DNA of 64,000 bases from a virus. Made by a program: the position numbers and the translations under genes. Below the pieces are notes generated by a model. The model did not search any database. It was not told the origin of the DNA and saw only the letters and a program-made list of their open reading frames with translations. Position 1 is the first letter of the stretch. Every line of letters begins with the position of its first letter. Shown in pieces: positions 47,537 to 61,364 of the stretch. The stretch is from positions 1 to 64,000 of IMG/VR virus record IMGVR_UViG_3300043464_002365; one strand, given 5' to 3'.

Positions 47537-47622
47537 AAGCAAAATAATTGTTAGCATGGCGAAACATCGCGAGACTGGCATCTCGTGACGTTTCTAACCA
47601 CTACCAAAGGAGCAGTTTGGCC

Positions 47623-48201
47623 ATGGCTGAACATAAGCATAGCAGCGTGCCTGCAGGGTTTAAGGAGATCCCTGGGTATGACGGACGCTATTTCATTAAT
47701 GAGAAGGGCGACGTGTGGAGCGTAGCCAAATCAAGGCTCATGAGCCCACAGACGGACGCCACTCATCCTTATCCATGGGTGCTACTAATAAAACCCGACA
47801 AGAAAAAGCAGCCAACTACTGTTTATTTTTTAATGCGTCTTACATGGATGCCTCATGCTCCAGGTGAGGTTGGAATAGGGGCCAACAAGTGGTGCATCAA
47901 CCACAAAGACGGAAATAAGCTCAATAGCTCATTGGATAATTTGGAATGGGTGACGAATTCTCAGAATGCTAAGCACGCATGGGAGAATGGATTGCAAGCA
48001 AAAGGTATCGACAAGAAAAACGCTATCTTCACTTCTATTGACGTGACACTAATCCGCTTGCGAGTGAAATACGGAGAAAGTGCCTATTCAGTAGCGAAAG
48101 AATACAATTGCGCTTATGGCACTATCAAGAAAATGTGTCGCTTTGAGAGCTGGAAACATCAAGACGGTAATCTTAACGGACGGATCCGACCAGCATCCTA
48201 A
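47623..48201 (+). CDS. NUMOD4-HNH homing endonuclease
   Basis: FKEIPGYDGRY.I...G.V; INHKDGNKLN...NLEWVT.SQN..HA. Confidence 0.88.
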   Translation: MAEHKHSSVPAGFKEIPGYDGRYFINEKGDVWSVAKSRLMSPQTDATHPYPWVLLIKPDKKKQPTTVYFLMRLTWMPHAPGEVGIGANKWCINHKDGNKLNSSLDNLEWVTNSQNAKHAWENGLQAKGIDKKNAIFTSIDVTLIRLRVKYGESAYSVAKEYNCAYGTIKKMCRFESWKHQDGNLNGRIRPAS

Positions 48202-48202
48202 A

Positions 48203-48307
48203 AGACCCGGCTGGCTCGGTATCAGACCCGGCTGGCTCGGTATCAGACCCGGCTGGCTCGGTATCAGACCCGGCTGGCTCGGTATCAGACCCGGCTGGCT
48301 CGGTATC
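48203..48307 (+). repeat. Five perfect 21-bp tandem repeats
   Basis: AGACCCGGCTGGCTCGGTATC x5. Confidence 0.95.
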
Positions 48308-48510
48308 ACCTTTCTTTTATATAATTTCATCTCATCATCACATCATAACGCTGTCGTTATATGCCTTTATGCGCATATGCCGATATCGTTGTATGCGCAT
48401 AGCCGCATAGTAGTACAGACGTACTATAGTACAAACGTACTAGCCTGAGGCGAGGGCGATTCCCGGTTCTCCGGTGGGGAATGGGGAAAATATACCCTAC
48501 CTGGCAGCCG

Positions 48511-48692
48511 TAAATATAGCCTACTGGTGGCGGCCTTAAGAGAGGCTCACTTGTGACCATGCTAAGAGAGGCTCACTTGTGACCATGCTAAGTGAGGCTC
48601 ACTTGTGGCCGCGCTAAGTGAGGCTCACTTGTGGCCGTGCTAGTTGTCTCCTACTGGTGACGGCCTTAAAAGTAAGCCACTGGTGGCGCGCT
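48511..48692 (+). repeat. Seven 26-bp degenerate tandem repeats
   Basis: For example TAAG(A/T)GAGGCTCACTTGTG(A/G)CC..GC; consensus TAR-N8-YACT. Confidence 0.9.
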
Positions 48693-48772
48693 GATTCTTT
48701 CTGCCTACTGGCGCGATTCTGCCGAGCTTCAGTGAGACCAACTGCTGCGCGTTGCTGTCTGCCGCATGGCCT

Positions 48773-48868
48773 TAGGTGAGCCTCACTGCGCAGCACTAGG
48801 TGAGCCCTACTGTTTAGCGTTAATTGTCTCTCACTGTTTAGCGCTAGTTGAGCCCTACTGTTTAGCCC
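48773..48868 (+). repeat. Four 24-bp degenerate tandem repeats
   Basis: TAGGTGAGCCCTACTGTTTAGCG-type units with the same TAR-N8-YACT core. Confidence 0.85.
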
Positions 48869-49152
48869 TAAGTGTAGATATTTCAATACGTAACGCCGCT
48901 GGCAGTTATGGCGCTTCCAATGGTATGGGCGCTGATTGTTGCGGATTGTTGCAGCAGCGGATTGTCTTGCGGGTTCCGTGATACGCGCGTACGCGCGATC
49001 ATCTTTCTGCTGAGCACTGCGCGCAGTCTCTCCCCATTGATAAGCCTGGCTTTTCATTGCGTCGCGGATCGGGCACTGATAAGCGTACTGGCTAATCTCC
49101 CGCCAAATCAGCGTTGACTGATCGCCCGTGCTTATCGCAGGCGCTTTGCCCC

Positions 49153-49200
49153 TTTGCAAACGCTTGTGGGGCCTGTAGTGTTCCCTCAGAACCTTGAAAA
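49153..49200 (+). promoter_or_regulatory. Sigma70 promoter followed by rrn-type boxA
   Basis: TTGCAA-N16-TAGTGT; GAACCTTGAAAA at 49189-49200. Confidence 0.65.
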
Positions 49201-49235: not shown

Positions 49236-49292
49236 GCGCGCGGGCCCTTTGTGGTTGCCGTGATGGCGCGGGGTCGACTCCCGCTGTGCGCT
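49236..49292 (+). ncRNA. Mini tRNA-like element
   Basis: 7-bp acceptor-like stem GCGCGCG/UGUGCGC stacked on T-arm GCGGG-GUCGACU-CCCGC. Confidence 0.55.
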
Positions 49293-49330
49293 TTGCCGGC
49301 TTTTGCCGGCCCTTCCCCTCTCTTTTATCT

Positions 49331-50083
49331 ATGGCTACCCTCTCGCACACTGCTGCGCTCCTCCTCTCCTCTCTGGAGACGGCAGAGCGTCCTAACGGTT
49401 CTCTCTTCCTCCGTCTCTCCTCCTCTGCTCCTAGTTGGGCTTCTTCTGTGATTAGAGAAGCTCACTTAGGCGAGCTCCCTAATGACTCTCGCTATGAGCT
49501 CATCAAAGACGCTCTCTCGGCTCTCTCTGATGGCGCCTTCTCTGATGAGGAGGAGGCTATCGACTCGATTGATGAGCTCTCTCTCGATCTCGTGCCACAC
49601 AGAACCACGGAGCTCCTCCAGTGGTTTGCTGATCACGCGAACCGCCTCTCCTCCTGCGATGAGGCTCTAGAAAGTGGCCGCATCTCTGATCTCTGCTCCT
49701 ATGAGCTCCTCTCTGAAGGGTTCCGCGTGGGAGCTGAGGAGATGCTCTCCTCGCTTATCTCCTCTCTAGAGGAGGAGCGTCTCTCAGTGTTCAATCCTGA
49801 CACTGATAGTCAGCTCCTCTTAGGCGACTCCCACGGGATATATATCCCCAAGCTCTGGGCCGATGGACTGGAGGATGAGGAGGAGGCAGAGTCCTATTCC
49901 GTCTCCTGGGAGGACGTCCTCATCTGTCAAGCTGGCCCAGACTCTGAGAACTACTGGCAAGCATGGGACGCAATCCTCCGCGATGCTCTCTGGAATGAAA
50001 ACGGAGAGGATTGGCGCCTCCTGCAGAATGGCGATCTCTGGGCTGTTCGCTCTGACGTAGAGATTCCTGAGGATGCATTCTGA
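49331..50083 (+). CDS. Acidic Ocr-like DNA-mimic (anti-restriction) protein with extra C-terminal domain
   Basis: AIDSIDELSLDLVPHRTTELLQWFA resembles T7 Ocr [25 protein letters not shown]; very D/E-rich. Confidence 0.6.
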   Translation: MATLSHTAALLLSSLETAERPNGSLFLRLSSSAPSWASSVIREAHLGELPNDSRYELIKDALSALSDGAFSDEEEAIDSIDELSLDLVPHRTTELLQWFADHANRLSSCDEALESGRISDLCSYELLSEGFRVGAEEMLSSLISSLEEERLSVFNPDTDSQLLLGDSHGIYIPKLWADGLEDEEEAESYSVSWEDVLICQAGPDSENYWQAWDAILRDALWNENGEDWRLLQNGDLWAVRSDVEIPEDAF

Positions 50084-50268
50084 TGAGACGGCTCTCCCTC
50101 TCCTCTCGTGAGGCTCTCTACGTCCTATGGGCTCTAGAGGAGGCTCTCCTCATCTCAGAACCTGAGGAGGAGGAGCTCCTCCTCTCTCTCATCTCTCGTT
50201 TGAACGGAGCCGCAGCCCCATTCTCCTCTGCCTCTGCCTCTCGCTCTCGCTCCTCCTCCCATGCCTGA
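50083..50268 (+). CDS. Small Leu/Ser/Glu-rich protein
   Basis: Start coupled to the previous stop. Confidence 0.45.
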   Translation: MRRLSLSSREALYVLWALEEALLISEPEEEELLLSLISRLNGAAAPFSSASASRSRSSSHA

Positions 50269-50308
50269 CGCTCTCTCCTCTCTCTACTCTGCCTCTCCTC
50301 TCTTTACC

Positions 50309-51187
50309 ATGCTCCTCTCCTCTCCTCTCCTTGACAACGTACGGGCTCTCTCTGGGCTCTCTGGCTCCTTTTACTTTTACGAACCACGGCAGGAGATTGT
50401 CAGCTCCTCCGACTACTGTTCTCCCATTGAATGGCGACAACCATCACCCAATGAGGCAGAGTCTCTCGGACTGGGAGAGCTCTCCTCCTACTCTTTGGAG
50501 CTCTGCCGAGAGCTCGGCTCCTCTGTCACCAAAATCACGCCAGAGGAGGCAGTAGAGCTCCTCTGTGAGCGCAAGCTATGGCAACGGTGCTCGCTCCTCT
50601 GGCTCCCGTCTTACTGTATGGGAGGAGACTACTGCGGCTCTACTCACCACGTGGCTAACGCTCGCTATCTCTTGCGCCAGTTCTCCTCGCCAGAGCTCAG
50701 AGAATGCAACGGAGGCTATGGGAGTCAAGGTGTCATTGTTGACCCTCGCTATCTCTCAGAGGAGCTCCTAGAACTCCTGCAGAGTCTTGAGAACTATCCC
50801 GTTCTCTGTGAGGATGAGCTCTCCTCCTACGAACTAGAACTACAGAACGAAACCTGGGATCACACAATCCGCAGAGAATGGGAGAGAGCTCTAGAGAGCG
50901 CTCTCTCCTCTCTCCTCTCAGACAATGAGGAGCTCGCAGAGAATGCAGTAGAGAGCCTCTCAGAGGATGCCCTGTTCTCTCTGTTCTCTCATTGTGCCGA
51001 GCTCTCTAATACCTACTGGGAGGCAGAGAGCGGAACTACTGTCTATATAGACATTGATCGCATCGCTCAGAGCCTCTCCTCAGAGCTCCTCCTAGAGCTC
51101 CTACAAGAGAGCCTCTCCTCTCAGTTCTCCCAGGCTCTACAGCCTCTCCTAGCCTCCTCTCAGCTCTCCCTGGAGCTCGCAGGCTGA
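50309..51187 (+). CDS. Acidic early protein (possible DNA mimic)
   Basis: GGDYCGS and LENYPVLCEDELS..E.E...E.W motifs; very Glu-rich. Confidence 0.55.
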   Translation: MLLSSPLLDNVRALSGLSGSFYFYEPRQEIVSSSDYCSPIEWRQPSPNEAESLGLGELSSYSLELCRELGSSVTKITPEEAVELLCERKLWQRCSLLWLPSYCMGGDYCGSTHHVANARYLLRQFSSPELRECNGGYGSQGVIVDPRYLSEELLELLQSLENYPVLCEDELSSYELELQNETWDHTIRREWERALESALSSLLSDNEELAENAVESLSEDALFSLFSHCAELSNTYWEAESGTTVYIDIDRIAQSLSSELLLELLQESLSSQFSQALQPLLASSQLSLELAG

Positions 51188-51197
51188 TACTCCCTGG

Positions 51198-51225
51198 CAG
51201 GCTCTCTCCTCAGTGAGAGAGCCTG
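51198..51225 (+). terminator. Hairpin closing the CT-rich cassette
   Basis: caggctctctc-ctcagt-gagagagcctg. Confidence 0.6.
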
Positions 51226-51313
51226 TTCTCTGTGAAAAGTGGGAGCATCTCATCAATTCTCATTGAGTCTCACTTTGATTCTCAATAACGCCGCTTATTG
51301 AGAACGCTCTCCT

Positions 51314-51366
51314 TTTGTAACGTATTGTGAAACGGTAGCAACGGATGCAGACGTATGGAGTAGTGT
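51314..51366 (+). promoter_or_regulatory. HLR1-like repeat and -10 box with no downstream ORF
   Basis: TTTGTAAC-GT-ATTGTGAA, 29 nt, TAGTGT. Confidence 0.6.
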
Positions 51367-51475: not shown

Positions 51476-52066
51476 TCACCAATTGCACAAATGTTCTTGT
51501 GCTTTTAATTCGCGCCACCAAGTATGTGACCGCCCTTGTCCGCGTTGGCAAGGAAGTTGTCCTGGCCACCAATATGCATTTTTAGAAACGTTTTGAGAAG
51601 CTTCTAGTACCATAAGATTTGCTGGTACATGCAAGCCACAAACGAAATCATTTTGCAATGGCACGATATGATCCACATGGAAAGACTGATCAGTAGCTTG
51701 TTCGAGCCATTCAGCGTGAAGATAATGAGCCTGCATTTGTTTTCTCATCTCACCCTTTCTAGCCCACGCGGGGCAAGCATTAAGTTTTTGAGCTTCTCTT
51801 AAGCGACTTTTAGCACGCTCTTTGCCAGGGTTTTCTTTTCTCCAGCGTTTAACTCTTGCTCTGACAGTTTCTGCGCAACGTTTTCCATATTCACGATTCC
51901 TAATGCGTTCTTTTTCACGATTTGCTTCTCTATAAGCTGCCCGTGATTTTTTATTGCAAGCTATGCACTCATTGCTTTTTCCGTCTGTCAGCTTGATGTC
52001 GCGATAGAACTCCGTAAATGCTTTGAATGTCCTGCATTTAACACAGGCCTTAATTCCACTCATCAC
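51476..52066 (-). CDS. HNH endonuclease
   Basis: CVKC...CIAC; HVDHIVPLQ...VCGLHVPANL...N.SK. Confidence 0.88.
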   Translation of the reverse strand: MMSGIKACVKCRTFKAFTEFYRDIKLTDGKSNECIACNKKSRAAYREANREKERIRNREYGKRCAETVRARVKRWRKENPGKERAKSRLREAQKLNACPAWARKGEMRKQMQAHYLHAEWLEQATDQSFHVDHIVPLQNDFVCGLHVPANLMVLEASQNVSKNAYWWPGQLPCQRGQGRSHTWWRELKAQEHLCNW

Positions 52067-52505: not shown

Positions 52506-52668
52506 CGCTTGATGCGCTGACTGAAGGAGCGTCGTCTAGCCAGGAAGCTGCATCTAGCCCGTATGAGGCAGCAGCTTCGCTTACGTCTATCGTAACTCAC
52601 GCTGTTGGGAGTTGTTTTGTCCCTGTTGTCCCGATCCTGTTATGATGAGGGCTCTCAGCGGAGCAAGC

Positions 52669-53364
52669 ATGGTCCAGCCAAAGGAAAAGAAGCGCAAAAC
52701 AGAGGGCTGGGTGTATTTCGTTCAATGGGCGAGCATGCCCTATCACGTGAAAATCGGCTTCTCCACGTCACCAGGAGAACGCTTCGCATCGTTCCTCACG
52801 TCATCGCCAGACACGCTGATCGTCGTCAAGGCTTTTGAAGCCAATCGAGACGATGAGCAGGATCTTCACGAGCGTTTTGACAATTCTCGCCATGCTGGCG
52901 AATGGTTCCACCTTTCCATGGCAATCAAAAAATATCTTGAGAATGAAGCTCCTTGTCAAACGCTGGAGGCGAAGATTAAATTTGGCAATAGGAACGAAAG
53001 TCGCATTCAGTGGACGCCAATGCGACCAGGGCTGGCTCAGTCTCTCGAAAAGCTGCATCAAGAGAAACGCCTGCCTCGCTATGTGAAGAATGCTCGAACG
53101 TTTGTGCTGTGGGCCATTGGAGACATTGAGGCTTGTGATTATTTTGCCACTTCCAATGCCATTATTCACCACGAAGCCAATCGTGACGCCTATCAAGCCA
53201 AAACTGTTTATAACCAACTGATTGCGCTGGAGGAAGAGGAAATGATTATGAAAAAGCCTGGCAAAACATTTGCCTTGCTTCCGAAAGGAGAGAGTGAGCT
53301 AATTGCAGCAGAGAAGGAGAATGCGAAGAAACGCAAAAGCGCACGAAGCTTAAGGCTTGATTAA
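52669..53364 (+). CDS. T5orf172/GIY-YIG-like domain protein with C-terminal winged helix
   Basis: GWVYFVQ...VKIGFS..P.ER...E..LHERF...GEWF. Confidence 0.75.
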   Translation: MVQPKEKKRKTEGWVYFVQWASMPYHVKIGFSTSPGERFASFLTSSPDTLIVVKAFEANRDDEQDLHERFDNSRHAGEWFHLSMAIKKYLENEAPCQTLEAKIKFGNRNESRIQWTPMRPGLAQSLEKLHQEKRLPRYVKNARTFVLWAIGDIEACDYFATSNAIIHHEANRDAYQAKTVYNQLIALEEEEMIMKKPGKTFALLPKGESELIAAEKENAKKRKSARSLRLD

Positions 53365-53695
53365 AAAGAAAGTTTGTATTAAATGCTGCTTTTCTTTCCA
53401 TGGAAAAGAACTAGCGTGAGATGATCTTCGCAAAGCTTCTATGTGGGGCCTTCCTGATCGCCAGCCATTTAATATTGGCCCGTATAAATTGTGGCCATGT
53501 TTTAGCAAGCCAGAATTTCAATGGTTTTCTGCTATTGATGGCAAGCCTTATTATTTTCGTACGACCAACGAAGCTAAATTATTTATTAAGGACTTGCTGG
53601 CCATGGACGATGCAGAAGGGCTTTGCGACTAAGACCGTTTGCGCTAGCCTGCCTTAGTTGATTCTCGGGGGACCATGGTCCCCTTTTGTCGTCTT

Positions 53696-55126
53696 ATGAA
53701 GCTGAAGGAAAAGGCAAAATGTGAGCCGATTGCCCGGACGGGGCGCGTGCAAAACTGGATGGATGATCCTGATGGGCGTCTTCCGGTGAGCTGCGCCGTA
53801 ATGGTCGTAGATGATTCAATGGAAGGGCCGAATGGTATTGAAGCATCATGGCGCTTCACTTCTCATGGTCTTCGTAATGGTGCCGGCGTAGCTATTCATC
53901 TTTCCAATCTTCGTCCTCGTGGTCAAGAGAATGGTAAAGGCCTCACTGCATCTGGCCCTTGTTCTTTTGGCAAGATTTATTCCACTCTTAATGAAGTGAT
54001 TCGTCGCGGCGGGAAATTTAAGAACGGCGCGGTTGTTTTACATCTTGATTACGACCATCCCGACGCCATGGAATTTGTTTCCATGACCAGGGCGGAATTG
54101 CAATGGGCAAAGCGTGCCATCAATGTTGATGAGCAATTCTTTGAGAAGACCACTCCAGAATTTCGCGCTGCATTGATTAAGGCGATTGGCAATGGTGATG
54201 TGTGGCTAGTAAAAAAGAAATACAACGCCAAGGGGGAACGCGTTTATTTTCAAGTTTGTCTGGAGGTAGCAATGCCTTCTCGTGGAACTTGCCTGCTTGA
54301 ACATGTAAATATGGGCGCTTGCTCCATTGATAATCTTGAAGGCGCATTTATTGCTGGCATGACAGAATTGTGCCAGCTTCATGCTCGCACTGGTGTAGGC
54401 AAAAGCAGCGAATACCTTTCGCCGGAAGTTGACAAACAAGTTGGTCTCGGCGTGCTGGGCCTGGCCAATTTTCTTTCCATCCATGGAATTAGCTACAAAG
54501 AGTTTGGCGAAGCCCTTGATGCTTTCCTGATGGACGATCCACATCCCTGGGCGCATTATTGGACAGATACCGTGGCCGGAAAAGCCGTCCACGCTCTGTA
54601 TAAGGGCATTGATAGCGCTGCTGACATTGCTCGTGAGCATGGAATGGAACGGGCTTTTGCCATTGCTCCTACTGCATCATGCTCCTATCGCTACCTCGAC
54701 ACTCGTGGCTTTACGACAGCCCCTGAAATCGCTCCTCCCATTGATCGCCTTGTGGATCGCGACAGCGAAACCATGGGCGTTGAGCGCTTTGAATATGGTC
54801 CGGTGGAAATCGCAGAGGAGGTGGGCTGGACTGCTTTCCGTAAAGTAGCAGATGGCATTTGCACTCTTCTCCATCGCACTGGCTTGTTCCATGGTTATTC
54901 CATGAACTGGTGGTCTGACATGGTTTCTTGCGACGAAGCTTTTATCAGGGAATGGCTTGACAGTCCTCAAACTTCTGTTTATTACGCTCTTCAAGTGCAA
55001 GCTGGCACTCAGGCTAAAGACGATGTTGGAGTAGACTTGGAAGAAAGTCTGAGCGATTTCTTCTCTATTGAAGAGACAGAAAGCTGCTCACTGGACGGAG
55101 GATTCTGCGCAGCATGTGCTGAGTAG
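53696..55126 (+). CDS. nrdA: Ribonucleotide reductase large subunit (short cyanophage type)
   Basis: LPVSC, TCLLEHVN, GLGVLG, AIAPTASCS, SVYY and C-terminal CAAC motifs. Confidence 0.85.
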   Translation: MKLKEKAKCEPIARTGRVQNWMDDPDGRLPVSCAVMVVDDSMEGPNGIEASWRFTSHGLRNGAGVAIHLSNLRPRGQENGKGLTASGPCSFGKIYSTLNEVIRRGGKFKNGAVVLHLDYDHPDAMEFVSMTRAELQWAKRAINVDEQFFEKTTPEFRAALIKAIGNGDVWLVKKKYNAKGERVYFQVCLEVAMPSRGTCLLEHVNMGACSIDNLEGAFIAGMTELCQLHARTGVGKSSEYLSPEVDKQVGLGVLGLANFLSIHGISYKEFGEALDAFLMDDPHPWAHYWTDTVAGKAVHALYKGIDSAADIAREHGMERAFAIAPTASCSYRYLDTRGFTTAPEIAPPIDRLVDRDSETMGVERFEYGPVEIAEEVGWTAFRKVADGICTLLHRTGLFHGYSMNWWSDMVSCDEAFIREWLDSPQTSVYYALQVQAGTQAKDDVGVDLEESLSDFFSIEETESCSLDGGFCAACAE

Positions 55127-55195
55127 TCTCCGTAAATTAATGGGCAGCTTTTGCTGCCCTTTGTTGTCTCTTTTCACCATCGTTTTGTAATTAAA

Positions 55196-55921
55196 ATGGC
55201 AGTTCTGGATTATTTTTCGGCAGTTGCTCGTAAGCGCCCTTGGGATGCAGTGCCTGTAACCAAGGGCGAATTTGTTGCCGGTTCGGAAGAAACTATTTTC
55301 CGGGCTTTGGCTATTCGTCATCTTGAACTGCCCGTGAAGGACATGCTGCTGGAAGGGCTTCAGCGCGAGCTTCCTAATACGCCTGGCCTCATTGAGAGCA
55401 TTGAAAGCAACATGACCGATGAGGAGCGGCATGACAGGGCTCTTGGCTTTGTCACCGATGCCCATGGCGTAGACGAAAAGGCCGAAAAGGAAGCCTTTAA
55501 GATTCGCCAAGCATGGATTGATCACCCCGCCCACCCTATTGCAAAAGTGGCAACTATTGAGCGGAGCCTATTCTTCACTATTCTTCCTTTCTTCCGGTTC
55601 AACGGAGACAAAGGACTGCGCACAGTGGCGAGCGACATCTCTAGGGATGAAATTTGCCACTCGTTTTGTAATACTAAAATCTGTGAAGAAGCCGGTGAAA
55701 AATATGGCGAGAGCTTGAACAAGCTTCGCAAGATGACAGCACTGTGGATTTATGACAAACTTGGTTCTTCGTCCAATAAATATCTGGACAAAGATTTTTG
55801 GTTGCGTCAAAGCGATGCGCTGTTCGTAAGCGGCAAGGCGCCTGAACTTAACGAAACAAGGGCTAGTACGATGCCCAGCTTTTTTGAATGTAATGCGCTA
55901 AATTTGCCACAATATGGTTGA
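55196..55921 (+). CDS. nrdB: Ribonucleotide reductase small subunit (ferritin-like)
   Basis: Two ExxH motifs (DEERH, DEICH); adjacent to nrdA; C-terminal FF...Y. Confidence 0.75.
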   Translation: MAVLDYFSAVARKRPWDAVPVTKGEFVAGSEETIFRALAIRHLELPVKDMLLEGLQRELPNTPGLIESIESNMTDEERHDRALGFVTDAHGVDEKAEKEAFKIRQAWIDHPAHPIAKVATIERSLFFTILPFFRFNGDKGLRTVASDISRDEICHSFCNTKICEEAGEKYGESLNKLRKMTALWIYDKLGSSSNKYLDKDFWLRQSDALFVSGKAPELNETRASTMPSFFECNALNLPQYG

Positions 55922-58727: not shown

Positions 58728-60098
58728 CTAGGAGATAAGGCTTTCAATCCAGCCAATGTCATCATCTTTACTTGCGGCAAGAATGGCACCTGCCATTGCA
58801 AACGCTAAGTCATCAATTCCAGAAGCTTTACCGCCAGTCACGCTCCATTGTCCACTGGGCTTGTAGATAACAGTGAGGTTTTTGAGCTGCATAATTGCTT
58901 TTTCATGGCGATATAAATTAATTTGTCCTGCATTGAACAATTCTCGCATCTTGCTGAATGCTTTCATCTTGGAGCTAACAGTCCAAGTGAGTTCCGTGAT
59001 GGGAAGGTCGCTTGCCAAGCTTTGAATGGTGCCAGCGCTGTTGAACTGGTCCATCACAATGGTGTCGAAGACGTACAGACGGTGCTGCTCTTTAATCCAA
59101 TCTTCCACTGCATTAATATTCACCTCCATTCTTCCATTGATTTCAAAATCAGCCACGAAAGAGTGGAATTTGTCAACGACTAGCGTGCCGTTTTCGTAAT
59201 GCACAATACAAGCAGTGTAGTCGTCACGGCCAACGCCACCACGGGCGGGGTCAAGGGCAAGAACGTAAGCGCCTTGGAATTCAGGACGGGGAGGCAGGGC
59301 TGCACGCATGTCGTCAATACATGCGTCAACAACATCGCTGGCAACGAGGGCGGAGAGATTGGTAGTAAACTGAGCTGCATATTCCACCTTAAATTTTTCA
59401 GGATCTCGCGCTCTTTCGGCGTCAAGAAAGTCCTGGGAAATATTAGGATTCATCACCCAAGTTGGATGATTCTCAGCAATCATAAATGGAAATCTTCCAG
59501 AACTTGCCTCTTGGAAGTGCTGATAAAAAATACCACCGTCTAACCATGGAGAAGAAAGCTCAAGAATGCGTCCTTTGCCGCCAAACTGAGCGATGGCGGG
59601 TGAAAGTGCGTCATAAATGCCCCTGCCGCCGCTATTTGCGTCTCCTTCGGTGGCGAAGGCAAGCTCGTCAAATACAGCGCCTGCGCAAGCTAGGCCGCGA
59701 GCAGCGCGTCCAGATGTAGGCACCGCCTTGAACACGCATCCATTGCTGATTTCAATGATGTCCGCAGTTTCGCGGACAATCTCTTGGGCAAAGGGGCTAT
59801 CAAGAATTAATTGACGGATGTTATTTAATGCAATACGCGCCTGGTCTTGCGAGTTGGCCACCGCAACAATGTACCATTTTTCGCCCTTTCTCACCTTGCG
59901 CCTGTAATCTTCTTCAAGTACAAAGCACATGTAAACGCAAGCGACTGCCGCCATTAGTGTTTTGCCACTACGTCTTCCCAGTGCCCACACTGCAGTGGAT
60001 ATTCCAGGGCGGAAAAAATTATCAAGAAGCTCTGCTTGTTTTGGATAAAGAGAAAGCTTTAGCGCGTGACGCGCAAAGTCTGAGCATCGCAGTGTCAT
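58728..60098 (-). CDS. terL: Terminase large subunit
   Basis: GRRSGKT Walker A, AVFDELAF Walker B, LSSP, ALDPA and DDLAFA nuclease motifs. Confidence 0.92.
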   Translation of the reverse strand: MTLRCSDFARHALKLSLYPKQAELLDNFFRPGISTAVWALGRRSGKTLMAAVACVYMCFVLEEDYRRKVRKGEKWYIVAVANSQDQARIALNNIRQLILDSPFAQEIVRETADIIEISNGCVFKAVPTSGRAARGLACAGAVFDELAFATEGDANSGGRGIYDALSPAIAQFGGKGRILELSSPWLDGGIFYQHFQEASSGRFPFMIAENHPTWVMNPNISQDFLDAERARDPEKFKVEYAAQFTTNLSALVASDVVDACIDDMRAALPPRPEFQGAYVLALDPARGGVGRDDYTACIVHYENGTLVVDKFHSFVADFEINGRMEVNINAVEDWIKEQHRLYVFDTIVMDQFNSAGTIQSLASDLPITELTWTVSSKMKAFSKMRELFNAGQINLYRHEKAIMQLKNLTVIYKPSGQWSVTGGKASGIDDLAFAMAGAILAASKDDDIGWIESLIS

Positions 60099-60099
60099 T

Positions 60100-60813
60100 T
60101 TAATTGTTGCAAATTTGAGCCTTCCATCCACGATGCACGTTACGATCTCCCCGTGCTACCGCCCTTATTGCGCGAGGATCAAGGCCGTGCTCGTTGCAGA
60201 AGGCAGACAATCGTTCTGGGGTGTGAATTTCCCCAGCAGGACTAATAAGTCTATAAATATGTCTTGCGCGTGAAAGTGATAATTTTTCTTTTGTTTCTTC
60301 CGAGGTTACGCGACCCATTCCAGCAAGCGCGATTTTGCGCTTATGGTCTTCAGACAGCTCTCTTCCCTTGGCGGCTCTTGATATCTTAAGTCTTGTCTCT
60401 ATCGAGATTTCTCTACCTTTTTGGCTTTGAGACATTTTCTGTCTTGTTTCTTGGCTGCACTTCCTCCCTGTATGCAATTCAATTAGGGCCAGCCTCCTTT
60501 CTTCCGATAGTACAGCCCCCGATGGCCCTTTACCCCCATCGCAAAGGTTGCGAAGAACCCCGCGTCCTTTGTCAATTCGCCCATACAACGCAATGCAGTA
60601 TTTTTCAAGACGAAAAGCTTCCTCCTCTGTTAGACCTTCTTGAATGAAAACAATAAATTCTTTAGAACGCGGGGCTTTAATGGTTCTTTTATTGGAAAAA
60701 GCCCTCCTATCTTTGCCTTTACCGATGTAATACGGAGTGTACTTTGCGCCAAACGAAGAGTCGCTGCTCCTCAAATAAGCGTAAACATAATAAGGGCAAT
60801 CAGACTTTTTCAT
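60100..60813 (-). CDS. GIY-YIG homing endonuclease with NUMOD3 repeats
   Basis: YYVYAYLR...PYYIGKG...R; NL.DGG.G; repeated SEETK.K.S. Confidence 0.85.
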   Translation of the reverse strand: MKKSDCPYYVYAYLRSSDSSFGAKYTPYYIGKGKDRRAFSNKRTIKAPRSKEFIVFIQEGLTEEEAFRLEKYCIALYGRIDKGRGVLRNLCDGGKGPSGAVLSEERRLALIELHTGRKCSQETRQKMSQSQKGREISIETRLKISRAAKGRELSEDHKRKIALAGMGRVTSEETKEKLSLSRARHIYRLISPAGEIHTPERLSAFCNEHGLDPRAIRAVARGDRNVHRGWKAQICNN

Positions 60814-61300
60814 TGATAACAAGAGAGGAGATGTCGCGCAGTTCATGCTGCGGCACGAAATAAGCAGGACGCCCTTTGGCAGGGTCCGCCCAATACCGAG
60901 GCTGCATCGCGTCTTGACCTAGGCACCACCCGCGAATAATAATATCTTCTTCGATGGTGACAAGAACTAGTTTCTTCCGAGGATTTTCGTCTTTCTGGAC
61001 AATCAGATCGCGGCTGTGTCCTTTTCTGGTTTTTACGTCAATCATGCCAGGCAGATCACAAGATCCCCTCACTGCCATTGTTTCACTGTATAACCAGTTC
61101 TTTAGCCCCAGAAAGGACGCTACAGCCATTTCTCCAGTTGAGCCCAGTACATGAGCCTCCAGCGCCTTGTTTCCAAGCGCGGGAGCGCCATTGCGTCCAC
61201 GAAGGCCGCGCTGCTCATTCAGGGACTGCCTTCTGTGCGCCTCCTTTAAAGCCAATGCTTTCTCTTGTTGTGTCAGGATGACACTGGCCAAGCTTGACAT
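60800..61300 (-). CDS. Hypothetical protein with restriction-endonuclease-like motif
   Basis: GEMAVA..L...D....IDVKT. Confidence 0.5.
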   Translation of the reverse strand: MSSLASVILTQQEKALALKEAHRRQSLNEQRGLRGRNGAPALGNKALEAHVLGSTGEMAVASFLGLKNWLYSETMAVRGSCDLPGMIDVKTRKGHSRDLIVQKDENPRKKLVLVTIEEDIIIRGWCLGQDAMQPRYWADPAKGRPAYFVPQHELRDISSLVINEKV

Positions 61301-61364
61301 GTGAACGCGGCTGATGCGGCCATCATAGCCGCTAGACTCGGTATAAGGCAACCATTGTGGTCAG

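Follow-up and report, generated by a model that had tools for sequence, protein, structure and literature searches.

The idea built on phages T5 and T7 is that the first DNA to enter the cell must escape restriction until pre-early proteins act. In T5 this idea is attached to the first-step-transfer region, and in T7 gene 0.3, which is the first gene of its unit and lies downstream of repeats and of a leader of host type, encodes the acidic DNA mimic Ocr. Strand-specific composition tied to transcription is the subject of Szybalski's transcription-direction rule, by which mRNA-synonymous strands are loaded with purines. Here, we describe a transcription unit in an S-CBS4-like cyanosiphovirus, a Synechococcus phage, that can be set beside these systems. 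Its first gene, g1, follows repeats and a host-type leader as gene 0.3 does, and the g1 product is predicted to share the fold and the acidic, DNA-mimic type of Ocr. The phage is, unlike T7, a siphovirus, and CT/GA recoding of this kind is not known to us from the early region of T7. The locus shares with the T5 region the idea of leading DNA that escapes restriction, but the loss of sites is small here, and a site that the phage strongly avoids is clustered in the region. In contrast to purine loading, the sense strand of the unit is 58-71% pyrimidine.

The window that we analyzed is the 64,000-nucleotide stretch at positions 1 to 64,000 of IMG/VR record IMGVR_UViG_3300043464_002365, a linear record of 73.9 kb with arbitrary ends in which the cassette lies at 49-51 kb. 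A scan of the whole 73,876-bp genome for CT, TC, GA, and AG steps returned a sole island, at 49261-51340, in which these steps account for 46% of the total versus 26% elsewhere. The island is one unit that consists of a pyrimidine-rich leader, the genes g1, g2, and g3, and a hairpin (Table 1). A preliminary description had read three consecutive genes as written in CTC, TCY, and GAG codons, and both the plus-strand open reading frames and the codon counts confirmed this. Relative to 14 long genes of the same genome, which served as the reference codon set, CTC rises from 14% to 73% of Leu codons, TCC plus TCT from 33% to 76% of Ser codons, and GAG from 32% to 83% of Glu codons. The reference genes favor CTT (36%), GAA (68%), and AGC (31%), as had been described, and the remaining genes of the phage manage without the CT/GA alphabet. 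Codons favored in GC-rich Synechococcus (CTG, GCG, CCG, and AGC) are avoided in the island. The reported skew of the proteins was also found, with Leu, Ser, and Glu making up 45% of cassette residues versus 22% elsewhere, whereas Lys, Thr, Asn, and Ile are down (Lys, 0.6% versus 4.6%). In addition, Glu seldom precedes codons that start with T, and both the composition and the residue order of the proteins are bent to the alphabet rule. The account of the cassette as low-complexity DNA agrees with its 4-mer entropy, since the three lowest entropy windows of the 64 kb are located in it (6.9-7.3; mean 7.60, sd 0.11). An assembly artefact is ruled out by recurrence of the island across over 12 independent IMG/VR contigs and by the metagenomic protein homologues of g1 and of g3, which number over 150 in either case. 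The observation is thus confirmed and is stronger than first stated.

Table 1. Features of the CT/GA unit and its upstream region (window coordinates; residue numbers for the domains of g1)
Feature	Position	Strand	Description
Tandem-repeat arrays	48203..48871	.	21 bp x5, 26 bp x4-5, 24 bp x3
boxA GAACCTTGAAAA	49189..49200	+	~130 nt upstream of g1
Leader	49261..49330	+	untranslated, 69% C+T, 4% A; island start
g1	49331-50083	+	250 aa, net charge -39
g1, first domain	residues 51-156		predicted Ocr-like DNA mimic
g1, second domain	residues 157-250		phrog_21544
g2	50083..50268	+	61 aa, 56% Leu/Ser/Glu
g3	50261..51187	+	308 aa, acidic, net charge -33
Hairpin CAGGCTCTCTC...GAGAGAGCCTG	51198..51225	+	terminator-like, built from CTCTC/GAGAG; island end

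The choice of synonymous codons within the island depends on the neighboring base. Before T, Ser is encoded by TCC 173 times and by TCT 23 times, whereas before C the counts are 36 for TCC and 172 for TCT (p=1.4e-50 for the flip). Similarly, Ala before C is GCT in 122 of 142 cases, Arg before G is AGA in 62 of 99, and Leu takes CTC in 481 of 591 instances with a pyrimidine next versus 40 of 183 with G next. The pairs TCC/TCT, GCC/GCT, and GAC/GAT all switch with the next base, and each such pair is normally read by a single tRNA. Since codon choice follows the next base, it does not reflect tRNA adaptation. Conserved residues were compared between alleles at 45-62% protein identity. Codon identity was 0.52-0.53 versus the 0.45-0.46 expected from usage alone, and this small excess indicates that synonymous sites are saturated between alleles. 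Yet the alphabet is kept in every allele, and the bias is therefore actively maintained.

All relatives with a full g1 (51-94% identity) carry the island, once per relative, with the leader and the terminator as its edges. The cassette is accessory and S-CBS4 lacks it. Whether homologues outside leading regions lack the bias had been named as a check, and the C-terminal domain of g1 has homologues outside the island that do: those in L034 (38% identity) and in the jumbo phage CBB show no bias and have ordinary composition. The CBB homologue lies within the 22-kb terminal repeat of that phage. Searches of the cassette against cultured phages by blastn and tblastn gave no match at E<=1e-3, and among cultured phages only the C-terminal domain of g1 found weak matches, in jumbo phages. 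Taken together, the signature is confined to one unit, is context dependent, is maintained across diverged alleles, and is missing from homologues elsewhere. The earlier proposal that selection acts on the nucleic acid, and not on the protein or the tRNA pool alone, is upheld by the neighbor-dependent codons, the saturation, the biased untranslated leaders, and the unbiased homologues.

The AF2 model of g1 has a pLDDT of 92, and residues 51-156 superimpose on 1s7z_A with Z 7.9 and an rmsd of 2.9 A over 103 of 106 residues, although the fold is helical and the Z is below 8. Among 48,161 chains 1s7z_A was the top match to g1, and the runner-up reached Z 4.8. A Foldseek search of g1 against the PDB did not recover the Ocr match, none of 56 g1 family members match the Pfam ocr family, and hhalign of g1 with T7 Ocr gave E 0.03 and a probability of 1.6%, with the register that the structural superposition also gave. 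The protein is thus similar to Ocr in predicted fold while standing outside the Ocr family by Pfam and by sequence. The acidic character is shared, with 25 Asp plus Glu against 7 Lys plus Arg in residues 51-156 of g1 and 34 against 6 in T7 Ocr. Unlike Ocr, g1 bears an N-terminal hairpin and a second acidic domain. A homodimer was predicted with a median ipSAE of 0.69 over three runs (best control, 0.00); in calibration, this mark was attained by 20 of 30 proteins with a solved pair structure but by just 1 of 23 whose structures are single chains. The contacts agreed 100% across the three runs, the partner pLDDT was 91, and the interface spans residues 91-127, a segment that aligns with Ocr residues ~48-81. 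It should be noted that this prediction may be partly a reflection of likeness to the solved Ocr dimer. Based on these models, g1 is predicted to carry the Ocr fold and to form an acidic homodimer, and the cassette is plausibly an anti-restriction operon because of that fold. This assignment would extend Ocr-like DNA mimics to cyanosiphoviruses.

g2 contains an 18-bp palindrome, GAGGAGGAGCTCCTCCTC, which encodes EEELLL. g3 has a conserved core (W..GDYCG..H..N) and 162 homologues were found for it. Its AF2 model has a pLDDT of 84.5; there was no PDB sequence match, no Foldseek match, and no Atlas lead, and the best VIA Z of 4.8 involves C-terminal helices only, so no fold match is convincing. 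Upstream, the tandem-repeat arrays are iteron- or operator-like, adjoin the operon, and lie outside the CT/GA alphabet; the relatives L002 and L005 have different arrays of 25-26 bp at the same location. Between the arrays and g1 is GAACCTTGAAAA, an exact match to the boxA of the cyanobacterial 16S-23S spacer, as the motif is named in the cyanobacterial ITS (10.1101/2021.01.08.426015), and the only one in the window. The exact 12-mer also precedes g1 in L001, L003, and L008, despite their differing leaders. From its sequence, this element matches the rrn/lambda-type boxA consensus and is a candidate antitermination leader. A sigma-70 scan upstream of g1 found no promoter, and an Rfam search of 47.5-52 kb returned nothing credible. 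At the other end, the preliminary description of a terminator built from ctctc and gagag holds for this window; a hairpin follows g3 in the relatives too, and it is CT/GA-built in only some of them.

The reading that we prefer, at somewhat less than an even chance, is that the unit serves an S-CBS4-like Synechococcus siphovirus as an accessory anti-restriction operon and that its sense transcript is under selection. The asymmetry of the sense strand extends into the untranslated leaders and points to the transcript; we infer that selection targets the sense transcript and not duplex DNA. Untranslated leaders have 57-71% pyrimidine on the sense strand in six of eight relatives, the L009 leader of 660 nt is 10% A, and from -30 to +40 of g1 just 13-16 of 70 nt are purine in seven of eight relatives. 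All seven homopyrimidine runs of at least 15 nt in the island are on the sense strand, where AAA is depleted to 0.15 and TTT to 0.45. No Shine-Dalgarno sequence is present in the g1 leader. The unit is ordered as a boxA leader, a purine-poor start region free of a Shine-Dalgarno sequence, g1, g2, g3, and the hairpin, and it is probably expressed early and in quantity, as suggested by boxA and the analogy to T7. The whole unit, leader included, is written in an alphabet poor in A, in which CT/TC and GA/AG steps alternate, with each synonymous base fitted to the first base of the next codon. In the mechanism that we propose, the resulting mRNA would be pyrimidine-loaded, poor in A/U words, and able to pair with itself through GAG:CUC; it would initiate translation independently of a Shine-Dalgarno sequence and would expose less single-stranded, A/U-rich sequence to endoribonucleases, for example cyanobacterial RNase E. 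That enzyme cleaves RNA in single-stranded stretches that have A at positions -3/-4 and U at +2 (PMC8682795), and another report describes host RNase E as taking part in cyanophage infection and RNA duplexes as shielding transcripts from it (PMC3113571). Consistent with a self-pairing transcript, the minimum free energy of the mRNA is below that of synonymous and dinucleotide shuffles (z -2.3 to -3.3).

Several results fit the preferred transcript-level reading less well. The A-N3-U clamp of RNase E is not depleted beyond composition (z -1.7), and folding of the g1 start region is only slightly weaker than that of other genes (-12.5 versus -16.1±6.3). The strand asymmetry of the coding part could be a mere consequence of choosing Leu and Ser over purine-coded residues. 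The ordinary codons of the other phage genes and the low sequence likeness of g1 to Ocr also count against this reading. The contrast between GAGCTC and CTCGAG described below is a signal of the duplex-DNA type, which leaves it unexplained by an RNA reading. Separately, S-CBS4 gp086, annotated 'RNase E', was taken up as a lead and dropped, as the presumed counterpart ORF in the window gave only a weak HTH match. A broader formulation, to which we give tentative weight and which is perhaps more doubtful than not, is that of an undescribed adaptation in which a counter-defense operon has been rewritten, in codons and in residue order, into a (CU)n/(GA)n alphabet that is kept by a specific nucleic-acid reader, with the island as a sanctuary for GAGCTC. 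The reader could, for example, be an escape from sequence-directed RNA or DNA defense, or the mRNA could be self-pairing, nuclease-resistant, or condensate-forming.

The explanation originally offered was that a first-entering cassette sheds recognition sites for restriction, BREX, or other duplex-DNA defenses until the Ocr-like protein is made. We regard this as unlikely. The word space of the island is indeed significantly smaller. The cassette holds 37.5% of 6-mers versus 52.4±1.6% in random windows (a 28% fall) and 15.6% of 3+N6+4 bipartite, Type-I-like words versus 19.2±0.3% (a 19% fall). Of 604 REBASE-type site types, the cassette has 310; random windows contain 342±13, recoding of its proteins with normal codons gives 359±11, and synonymous shuffling that retains the codon usage of the cassette gives 356±9, which indicates some extra site avoidance. 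In addition, CpG is at 0.56 of expectation, and CTCGAG is absent despite 86 Leu-Glu pairs. The gain is nonetheless small, with 10-28% of possible recognition words lost, and the total number of sites rises to 1279 from 1007. The claim that the collapse would remove most restriction and BREX sites is consequently not supported, and of the predicted depletion against shuffled controls only the modest loss of site types stands.

The distribution of single words also weighs against site removal. GAGCTC, estimated by hand at about 19 copies, occurs exactly 19 times in 49320-51230, versus a single copy in the 62 kb that make up the rest of the window and two copies in the remaining 72 kb of the genome, where it ranks second among avoided hexamers (22 expected). 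Because of GAGCTC, palindromes that the phage avoids are 15x denser in the cassette than in the rest (12.9 versus 0.85 per kb). The rest of the genome avoids palindromes strongly, 29 of the 64 six-base palindromes having four or fewer copies, and the island shares this avoidance for CTCGAG and most others. Outside the island, however, avoidance proceeds word by word with complexity kept, so Type II palindromes are purged there free of any alphabet collapse, whereas in the island the alphabet as a whole has changed and GAGCTC escapes the avoidance. A search of the genome for DNA methyltransferase families came up empty, and the phage relies on site avoidance, which favors the restriction-escape explanation; the lack of such families also argues against self-methylation as the reason that GAGCTC is tolerated. 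Position offers hints in favor of restriction escape, in that the ends of the S-CBS4 GenBank record map to the cassette position (a hint only) and the terminal repeat of CBB houses the homologue noted above, but a relative with direct terminal repeats has its island 7.4 kb from the contig start; the Ocr likeness of g1 is in line with this explanation as well. Against it, shielding 1.9 kb would be useful only if the other 72 kb remained outside the cell, and a duplex model does not predict the sense-strand asymmetry of the leader.

A signal at the DNA level is a further explanation, and its chance of being correct also appears low. Here, homopurine·homopyrimidine blocks beside the iteron-like region would confer special mechanical or structural properties, such as a low R-loop tendency of a heavily transcribed unit next to an origin, H-DNA, protein coating, or a packaging or entry signal, and GAGCTC would be tolerated or used as a binding word in the island and excluded elsewhere. 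The excess of CT/TC/GA/AG steps, the density of homopyrimidine runs of at least 15 nt (3.4 versus 0.22 per kb), GC and AT skews that are among the most negative of the window, and the constant presence of tandem-repeat arrays just upstream are as expected from such a signal. GAGCTC is also restricted to islands across the lineage, but inside them it is merely at compositional expectation (85 seen, 86 expected). Palindromes of at least 10 bp are 2-4x enriched, but the enrichment is modest against synonymous shuffles (z 2.1) and is largely due to conserved peptides such as EEELLL. Perfect (CT)n tracts stop at n=4.

It is quite improbable that the alphabet is an evolutionary by-product, either of homogenized codons that keep diverged alleles recombinable, so that the module would spread and be reshuffled among phages, or of a local mutational or slippage bias in low-complexity DNA. 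In favor of such an origin, the relative L003 is 94% identical in g1 and 59% in g3, L001 is 55% and 84%, and from this discordance we conclude that g1 and g3 alleles assort independently. The alleles of g3 are themselves mosaic, with a breakpoint near residue 35, with the N-terminal 35 residues grouping with one allele set and the remainder with another. Gene content varies as well (g2 is present in some relatives and absent from L001 and L008, and L007 has an extra gene), metagenomic contigs commonly break inside the island, and the phage encodes a Sak-like annealase. However, integration of a module is set by its flanks and not by its interior. Slippage of CT units would destroy the reading frame, and there are no long, slippable perfect tandem repeats in the island, where TRF returned short, imperfect arrays only. 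The proteins are conserved, their globular folds are modeled with confidence, and no known source would sustain a mutational bias for so long in one transcription unit.

Ordinary codon adaptation (codons preferred by the host, for rapid translation early in infection) or a foreign donor signature might be read from the GC content (56% in the island versus 49% in the phage), from the accessory status of the cassette, and from the loss of tRNA expression as a resistance route in marine Synechococcus (PMC11726456). It is the least probable explanation and is largely refuted by the next-base flips, by the same bias in untranslated leaders, and by the saturation of synonymous sites, across which a donor signature would have decayed. 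The avoidance of CTG, GCG, CCG, and AGC in the island also speaks against it. Other ideas were set aside: to our knowledge cyanobacteria lack Rho, which removes Rho loading on YC-rich RNA; nitrogen saving would amount to ~5% per nucleotide; avoidance of UV dimers runs against the rise in CT/TC steps; and CRISPR PAM avoidance was considered and likewise set aside.

The usual accounts of synonymous sites in phage genes invoke tRNA supply, biased mutation, or avoidance of individual words. In this family of uncultured cyanophages, a whole counter-defense operon is kept in a reduced alphabet, and the effect is extreme, flipping a codon pair from 173:23 to 36:172 on the identity of the next base and reshaping the composition and order of the proteins. 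Something selects on the nucleic acid itself, and probably not by the removal of restriction sites; for theories of restriction avoidance, the exemption of GAGCTC is a sharp and testable anomaly. Identification of what reads the alphabet would uncover a layer of the arms race between phages and marine and estuarine Synechococcus that operates on nucleic acids, and the alphabet would then become a sequence signature for spotting early anti-defense operons in metagenomes.

The IMG/VR virus record (73,876 bp, of which the window is positions 1-64000) is that of a siphovirus. Its recognizable genes encode a tape measure protein (1816 aa), a portal, a large terminase, an endolysin, a primase/helicase, a Sak-like annealase, a ribonucleotide reductase (RNR), and several homing-type endonucleases. 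Among cultured phages, Synechococcus phage S-CBS4 is the nearest relative (66% identity in the portal). A scan for CT, TC, GA, and AG steps returned one island in the entire genome, which extends from ∼70 nt before the start codon of g1 to just beyond the hairpin after g3. The three genes of this cassette (g1, g2, and g3) are located between small plus-strand genes and the RNR gene.

Features of the CT/GA cassette and its surroundings, in window coordinates
Feature	Position	Strand	Remark
HNH/NUMOD4 homing-endonuclease gene	47548-48201		
Three adjoining tandem-repeat arrays	48203-48871		21 bp x5 (perfect), 26 bp x4-5, 24 bp x3
Inverted motifs	49036-49140		TGATAAGC ... GCTTATC
boxA copy	49189-49200		GAACCTTGAAAA, exact match to cyanobacterial rRNA-spacer boxA
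CT/GA island	49261-51340		
g1 ORF	49331-50083	+	
First TATATA palindrome	49835-49848		GGGATATATATCCC, codes for GIYIP
g2 ORF	50083-50268	+	
g3 ORF	50261-51187	+	
Second TATATA palindrome	51040-51053		TGTCTATATAGACA
Endonuclease VII-like gene	51476-52066	-	
GIY-YIG/T5orf172 gene	52612-53364		
RNR large-subunit gene	53675-55921		
Second RNR-region ORF	55151		256 aa
Large terminase region	58728-61351	-	
ORF with NUMOD3 motif	60100-60846		
Portal gene	61365	+	

The preliminary description held that the three genes are written in CTC, TCC/TCT, and GAG codons, and the counts agree. CTC makes up 73% of Leu codons in the cassette and 14% in the long genes of the same genome, TCC and TCT together 76% and 33% of Ser codons, and GAG 83% and 32% of Glu codons. 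The CTT, GAA, and AGC preference ascribed to the rest of the genome was seen in the long genes, the manual count of about 19 GAGCTC sites is matched by 19 in the cassette, and the k-mer entropy minima of the window fall in the island. The encoded proteins are skewed as claimed, with Leu, Ser, and Glu forming 45% of residues as compared to 22% elsewhere, and Lys 0.6%. The pattern described is genuine, extreme in statistical terms, and conserved. The otherwise A/T-poor island also contains two 14-bp perfect palindromes centered on TATATA, the first of which occurs in L004 and L008, though not in every related phage locus.

Nine cassettes were pooled and every synonymous codon was tabulated against the first base of the following codon. 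Before T, Ser is written TCC 173 times and TCT 23 times, and before C it is written TCT 172 times and TCC 36 times (p = 1.4e-50). Ala before C is GCT in 122 of 142 cases; Asp is GAC before T (66/95) and GAT before C (46/66) or G (87/125); Gly and Arg before G are GGA (65/106) and AGA (62/99); and Leu is CTC in 481 of 591 cases before a pyrimidine and in 40 of 183 before G. Since codon choice tracks the next base, the third base is chosen to yield CT, TC, AG, or GA at codon junctions, and the junctions TT, CC, CG, and GT are shunned. The bias operates on oligonucleotides rather than on codons. The junction rule also molds the protein sequence: a T-starting codon follows Glu in 49 of 651 cases, where such codons are ∼1/4 of all codons, and EL dipeptides are over-represented while ES and SE are under-represented.

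All relatives that have a complete g1 (51-94% identity) carry the island, where CTC accounts for 43-79% of Leu codons (background 4-31%) and GAG for 79-100% of Glu codons (background 22-64%). The bias weakens at 37% identity (L010/L011). Alleles with 45-62% protein identity share a fraction of 0.52-0.53 of their codons at conserved residues, and usage alone predicts 0.45-0.46. Synonymous sites have thus completely turned over within the permitted alphabet, so that the bias cannot be due to shared ancestry and is actively maintained. Selection on the nucleic acid, as first proposed, is backed by this retention and by the next-base rule. Where the g1 C-terminal domain has homologs beyond such cassettes, these are unbiased and of normal amino-acid make-up. 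One such homolog comes from another phage contig, L034 (38% identity), and one from the Pectobacterium jumbo phage vB_PcaM_CBB (17042-17374, in its 22,456-bp terminal "redundant repeat"). The latter, a remote homolog, stands two genes from a DUF932 protein, and the domain family may be a general marker of early or terminal regions. An assembly artifact was ruled out by the >150 metagenomic homologs each of g1 and g3 and by the presence of this island, with the same neighborhood, in >12 IMG/VR contigs drawn from different samples. Alleles of g1 and g3 assort independently, and g3 is itself mosaic.

Selection may act on the sense transcript and not on the duplex DNA. The transcript is indicated because the island matches a single transcription unit, the asymmetry is specific to the sense strand with untranslated leaders included, AAA is depleted to 0.15 on that strand (TTT 0.45), all long homopyrimidine runs lie on it, and the natural mRNAs have more stable folds than their synonymous or dinucleotide shuffles do (z -2.3 to -3.3). 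On this compositional support, we tentatively favor a transcript-level reading. Cyanobacterial RNase E cuts A/U-rich single-stranded RNA (PMC8682795), and two further sources indicate that host RNase E matters in cyanophage infection (PMC3113571, PMC9692554). The A-N3-U clamp of RNase E shows no depletion in the island beyond base content. The leaders are A-poor and, in six of eight cassettes, 57-71% pyrimidine on the sense strand; that of one relative is 660 nt long with 10% A. Of the 70 bases between -30 and +40 at the start of g1, only 13-16 are purines in seven of eight cassettes, and no Shine-Dalgarno sequence was found in this region.

Further upstream, the boxA copy, a motif identified as such in 10.1101/2021.01.08.426015, occurs once in the window and recurs ahead of g1 in three relatives with otherwise different leaders. 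Tandem-repeat arrays always lie upstream of the unit, with sequences that vary among relatives. Here, the 26-bp and 24-bp units are mutually inverted (core GAGGCTCAC / GTGAGCCTC), relatives carry other arrays of 25-26 bp at this position, and the arrays may function as an origin or operator array or may be end repeats. The region separating them from boxA contains inverted motifs, and GATAAG/CTTATC motifs stand at the equivalent place in L002, L003, L005, L007, and L009 despite differing surroundings. They could serve as a regulator-binding site.

The preliminary description had instead proposed that the alphabet would strip most restriction/BREX sites from a first-injected segment. We counted 604 distinct REBASE-type recognition sequences (Biopython) and found 310 site types in the cassette (1279 sites in total), 342 ± 13 in random genome windows (1007), 359 ± 11 for the same proteins in background codons (1093), and 356 ± 9 in synonymous shuffles with the cassette's own codon usage (1396). 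Coverage of all 6-mers drops from 52.4% to 37.5%, and that of bipartite 3+N6+4 space from 19.2% to 15.6%. The loss is real, but at ∼10-28% it is not the removal of "most" sites. No DNA methyltransferase was found in the phage genome. Avoidance of six-base palindromes is very strong outside the island, where 29 of 64 are kept low (≤4 copies each, ∼17 expected), with zero copies of CAGCTG, CCCGGG, CCGCGG, GTGCAC, and TTCGAA and one of CTCGAG. Others are abundant, such as AAGCTT (108 copies, where composition predicts 18) and CCATGG, TTGCAA, and AGCGCT (46-53). GAGCTC has one copy in the rest of the window and two across the remaining 72 kb of the genome, and it ranks second in depletion among hexamers outside the island (2 vs 22 expected, maximal-order Markov model). 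It is also depleted in S-CBS4 (1 vs 19) and in relatives' flanks (7 vs 34), and undepleted in phage Syn5 (36 vs 26). Within islands, GAGCTC is at compositional expectation (85 vs 86) and encodes 95 of 132 Glu-Leu pairs. Its mirror palindrome, CTCGAG, is absent from ∼20 kb of islands; none of 86 Leu-Glu pairs uses it, CTA GAG or CTG GAG appearing instead, and CTC GAT is permitted. The island therefore respects one ban of the restriction type and escapes another, which argues against a simple site-removal purpose. That purpose is not supported as proposed, and selection for site removal from the duplex is unlikely. To our knowledge, neither the CT/GA alphabet nor the GAGCTC exemption has a described precedent.

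A role in DNA structure or binding is similarly unlikely, and a by-product of recombination or mutation is less likely still. Codon adaptation or foreign origin is highly improbable, as the choice flips with the next base within pairs such as TCC/TCT, which normally share one tRNA, so tRNA adaptation is unable to explain the rule.

With regard to genome position, the record ends are arbitrary. In one relative with terminal repeats the island lies 7.4 kb from the contig start, and both ends of the S-CBS4 GenBank record fall exactly at the place the cassette occupies here, between small early genes and the RNR gene. Many metagenomic contigs begin or stop in the island or within ∼350 bp of it (L005, L006/L032, L010, L031, and L033), which could reflect physical ends, low-complexity assembly trouble, or population micro-diversity. 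The HNH/NUMOD4 gene is missing from the otherwise collinear L003, whose DNA is 92% identical up to 47543 and picks up again at 48282; the gene is a recent insertion adjoining the cassette. The other flank carries the endonuclease VII-like and GIY-YIG/T5orf172 genes. The RNR large-subunit gene looks short or split, with a 483-aa ORF matching only parts of the RNR barrel followed by the 256-aa ORF, and may be interrupted by a mobile element or intein. The large terminase points away from the portal gene, and the NUMOD3 ORF after it suggests a further homing-type endonuclease beside the packaging genes.

The predicted fold of g1 is confident (pLDDT 92), and its net charge is -39. Residues 51-156 superpose on T7 Ocr (Z 7.9, rmsd 2.9 Å, 103 of 106 residues aligned), with the runner-up at Z 4.8. 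A Foldseek search against the PDB did not recover the Ocr match, and a Pfam search gave none; a weak profile alignment places the same segments in register, with a VPH motif common to both. A symmetric dimer is predicted via residues 91-127 (ipSAE 0.69, best control 0.00; three of three runs agree in contacts, pLDDT 91). In the calibration of the prediction tool, 20 of 30 proteins whose structures were solved as pairs attained this mark, as did 1 of 23 solved as single chains. Residues 91-127 align with the dimer-interface part of Ocr. The g3 protein (net charge -33, pLDDT 84.5) had no convincing relative by structure or sequence search, g2 is a 61-aa peptide found in some cassettes only, and one relative's cassette includes an additional small acidic gene. 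The predicted structure thus places the fold of T7 Ocr in a cyanosiphovirus, where the operon is a putative Ocr-type early anti-restriction unit, of a known type but new to such a phage.
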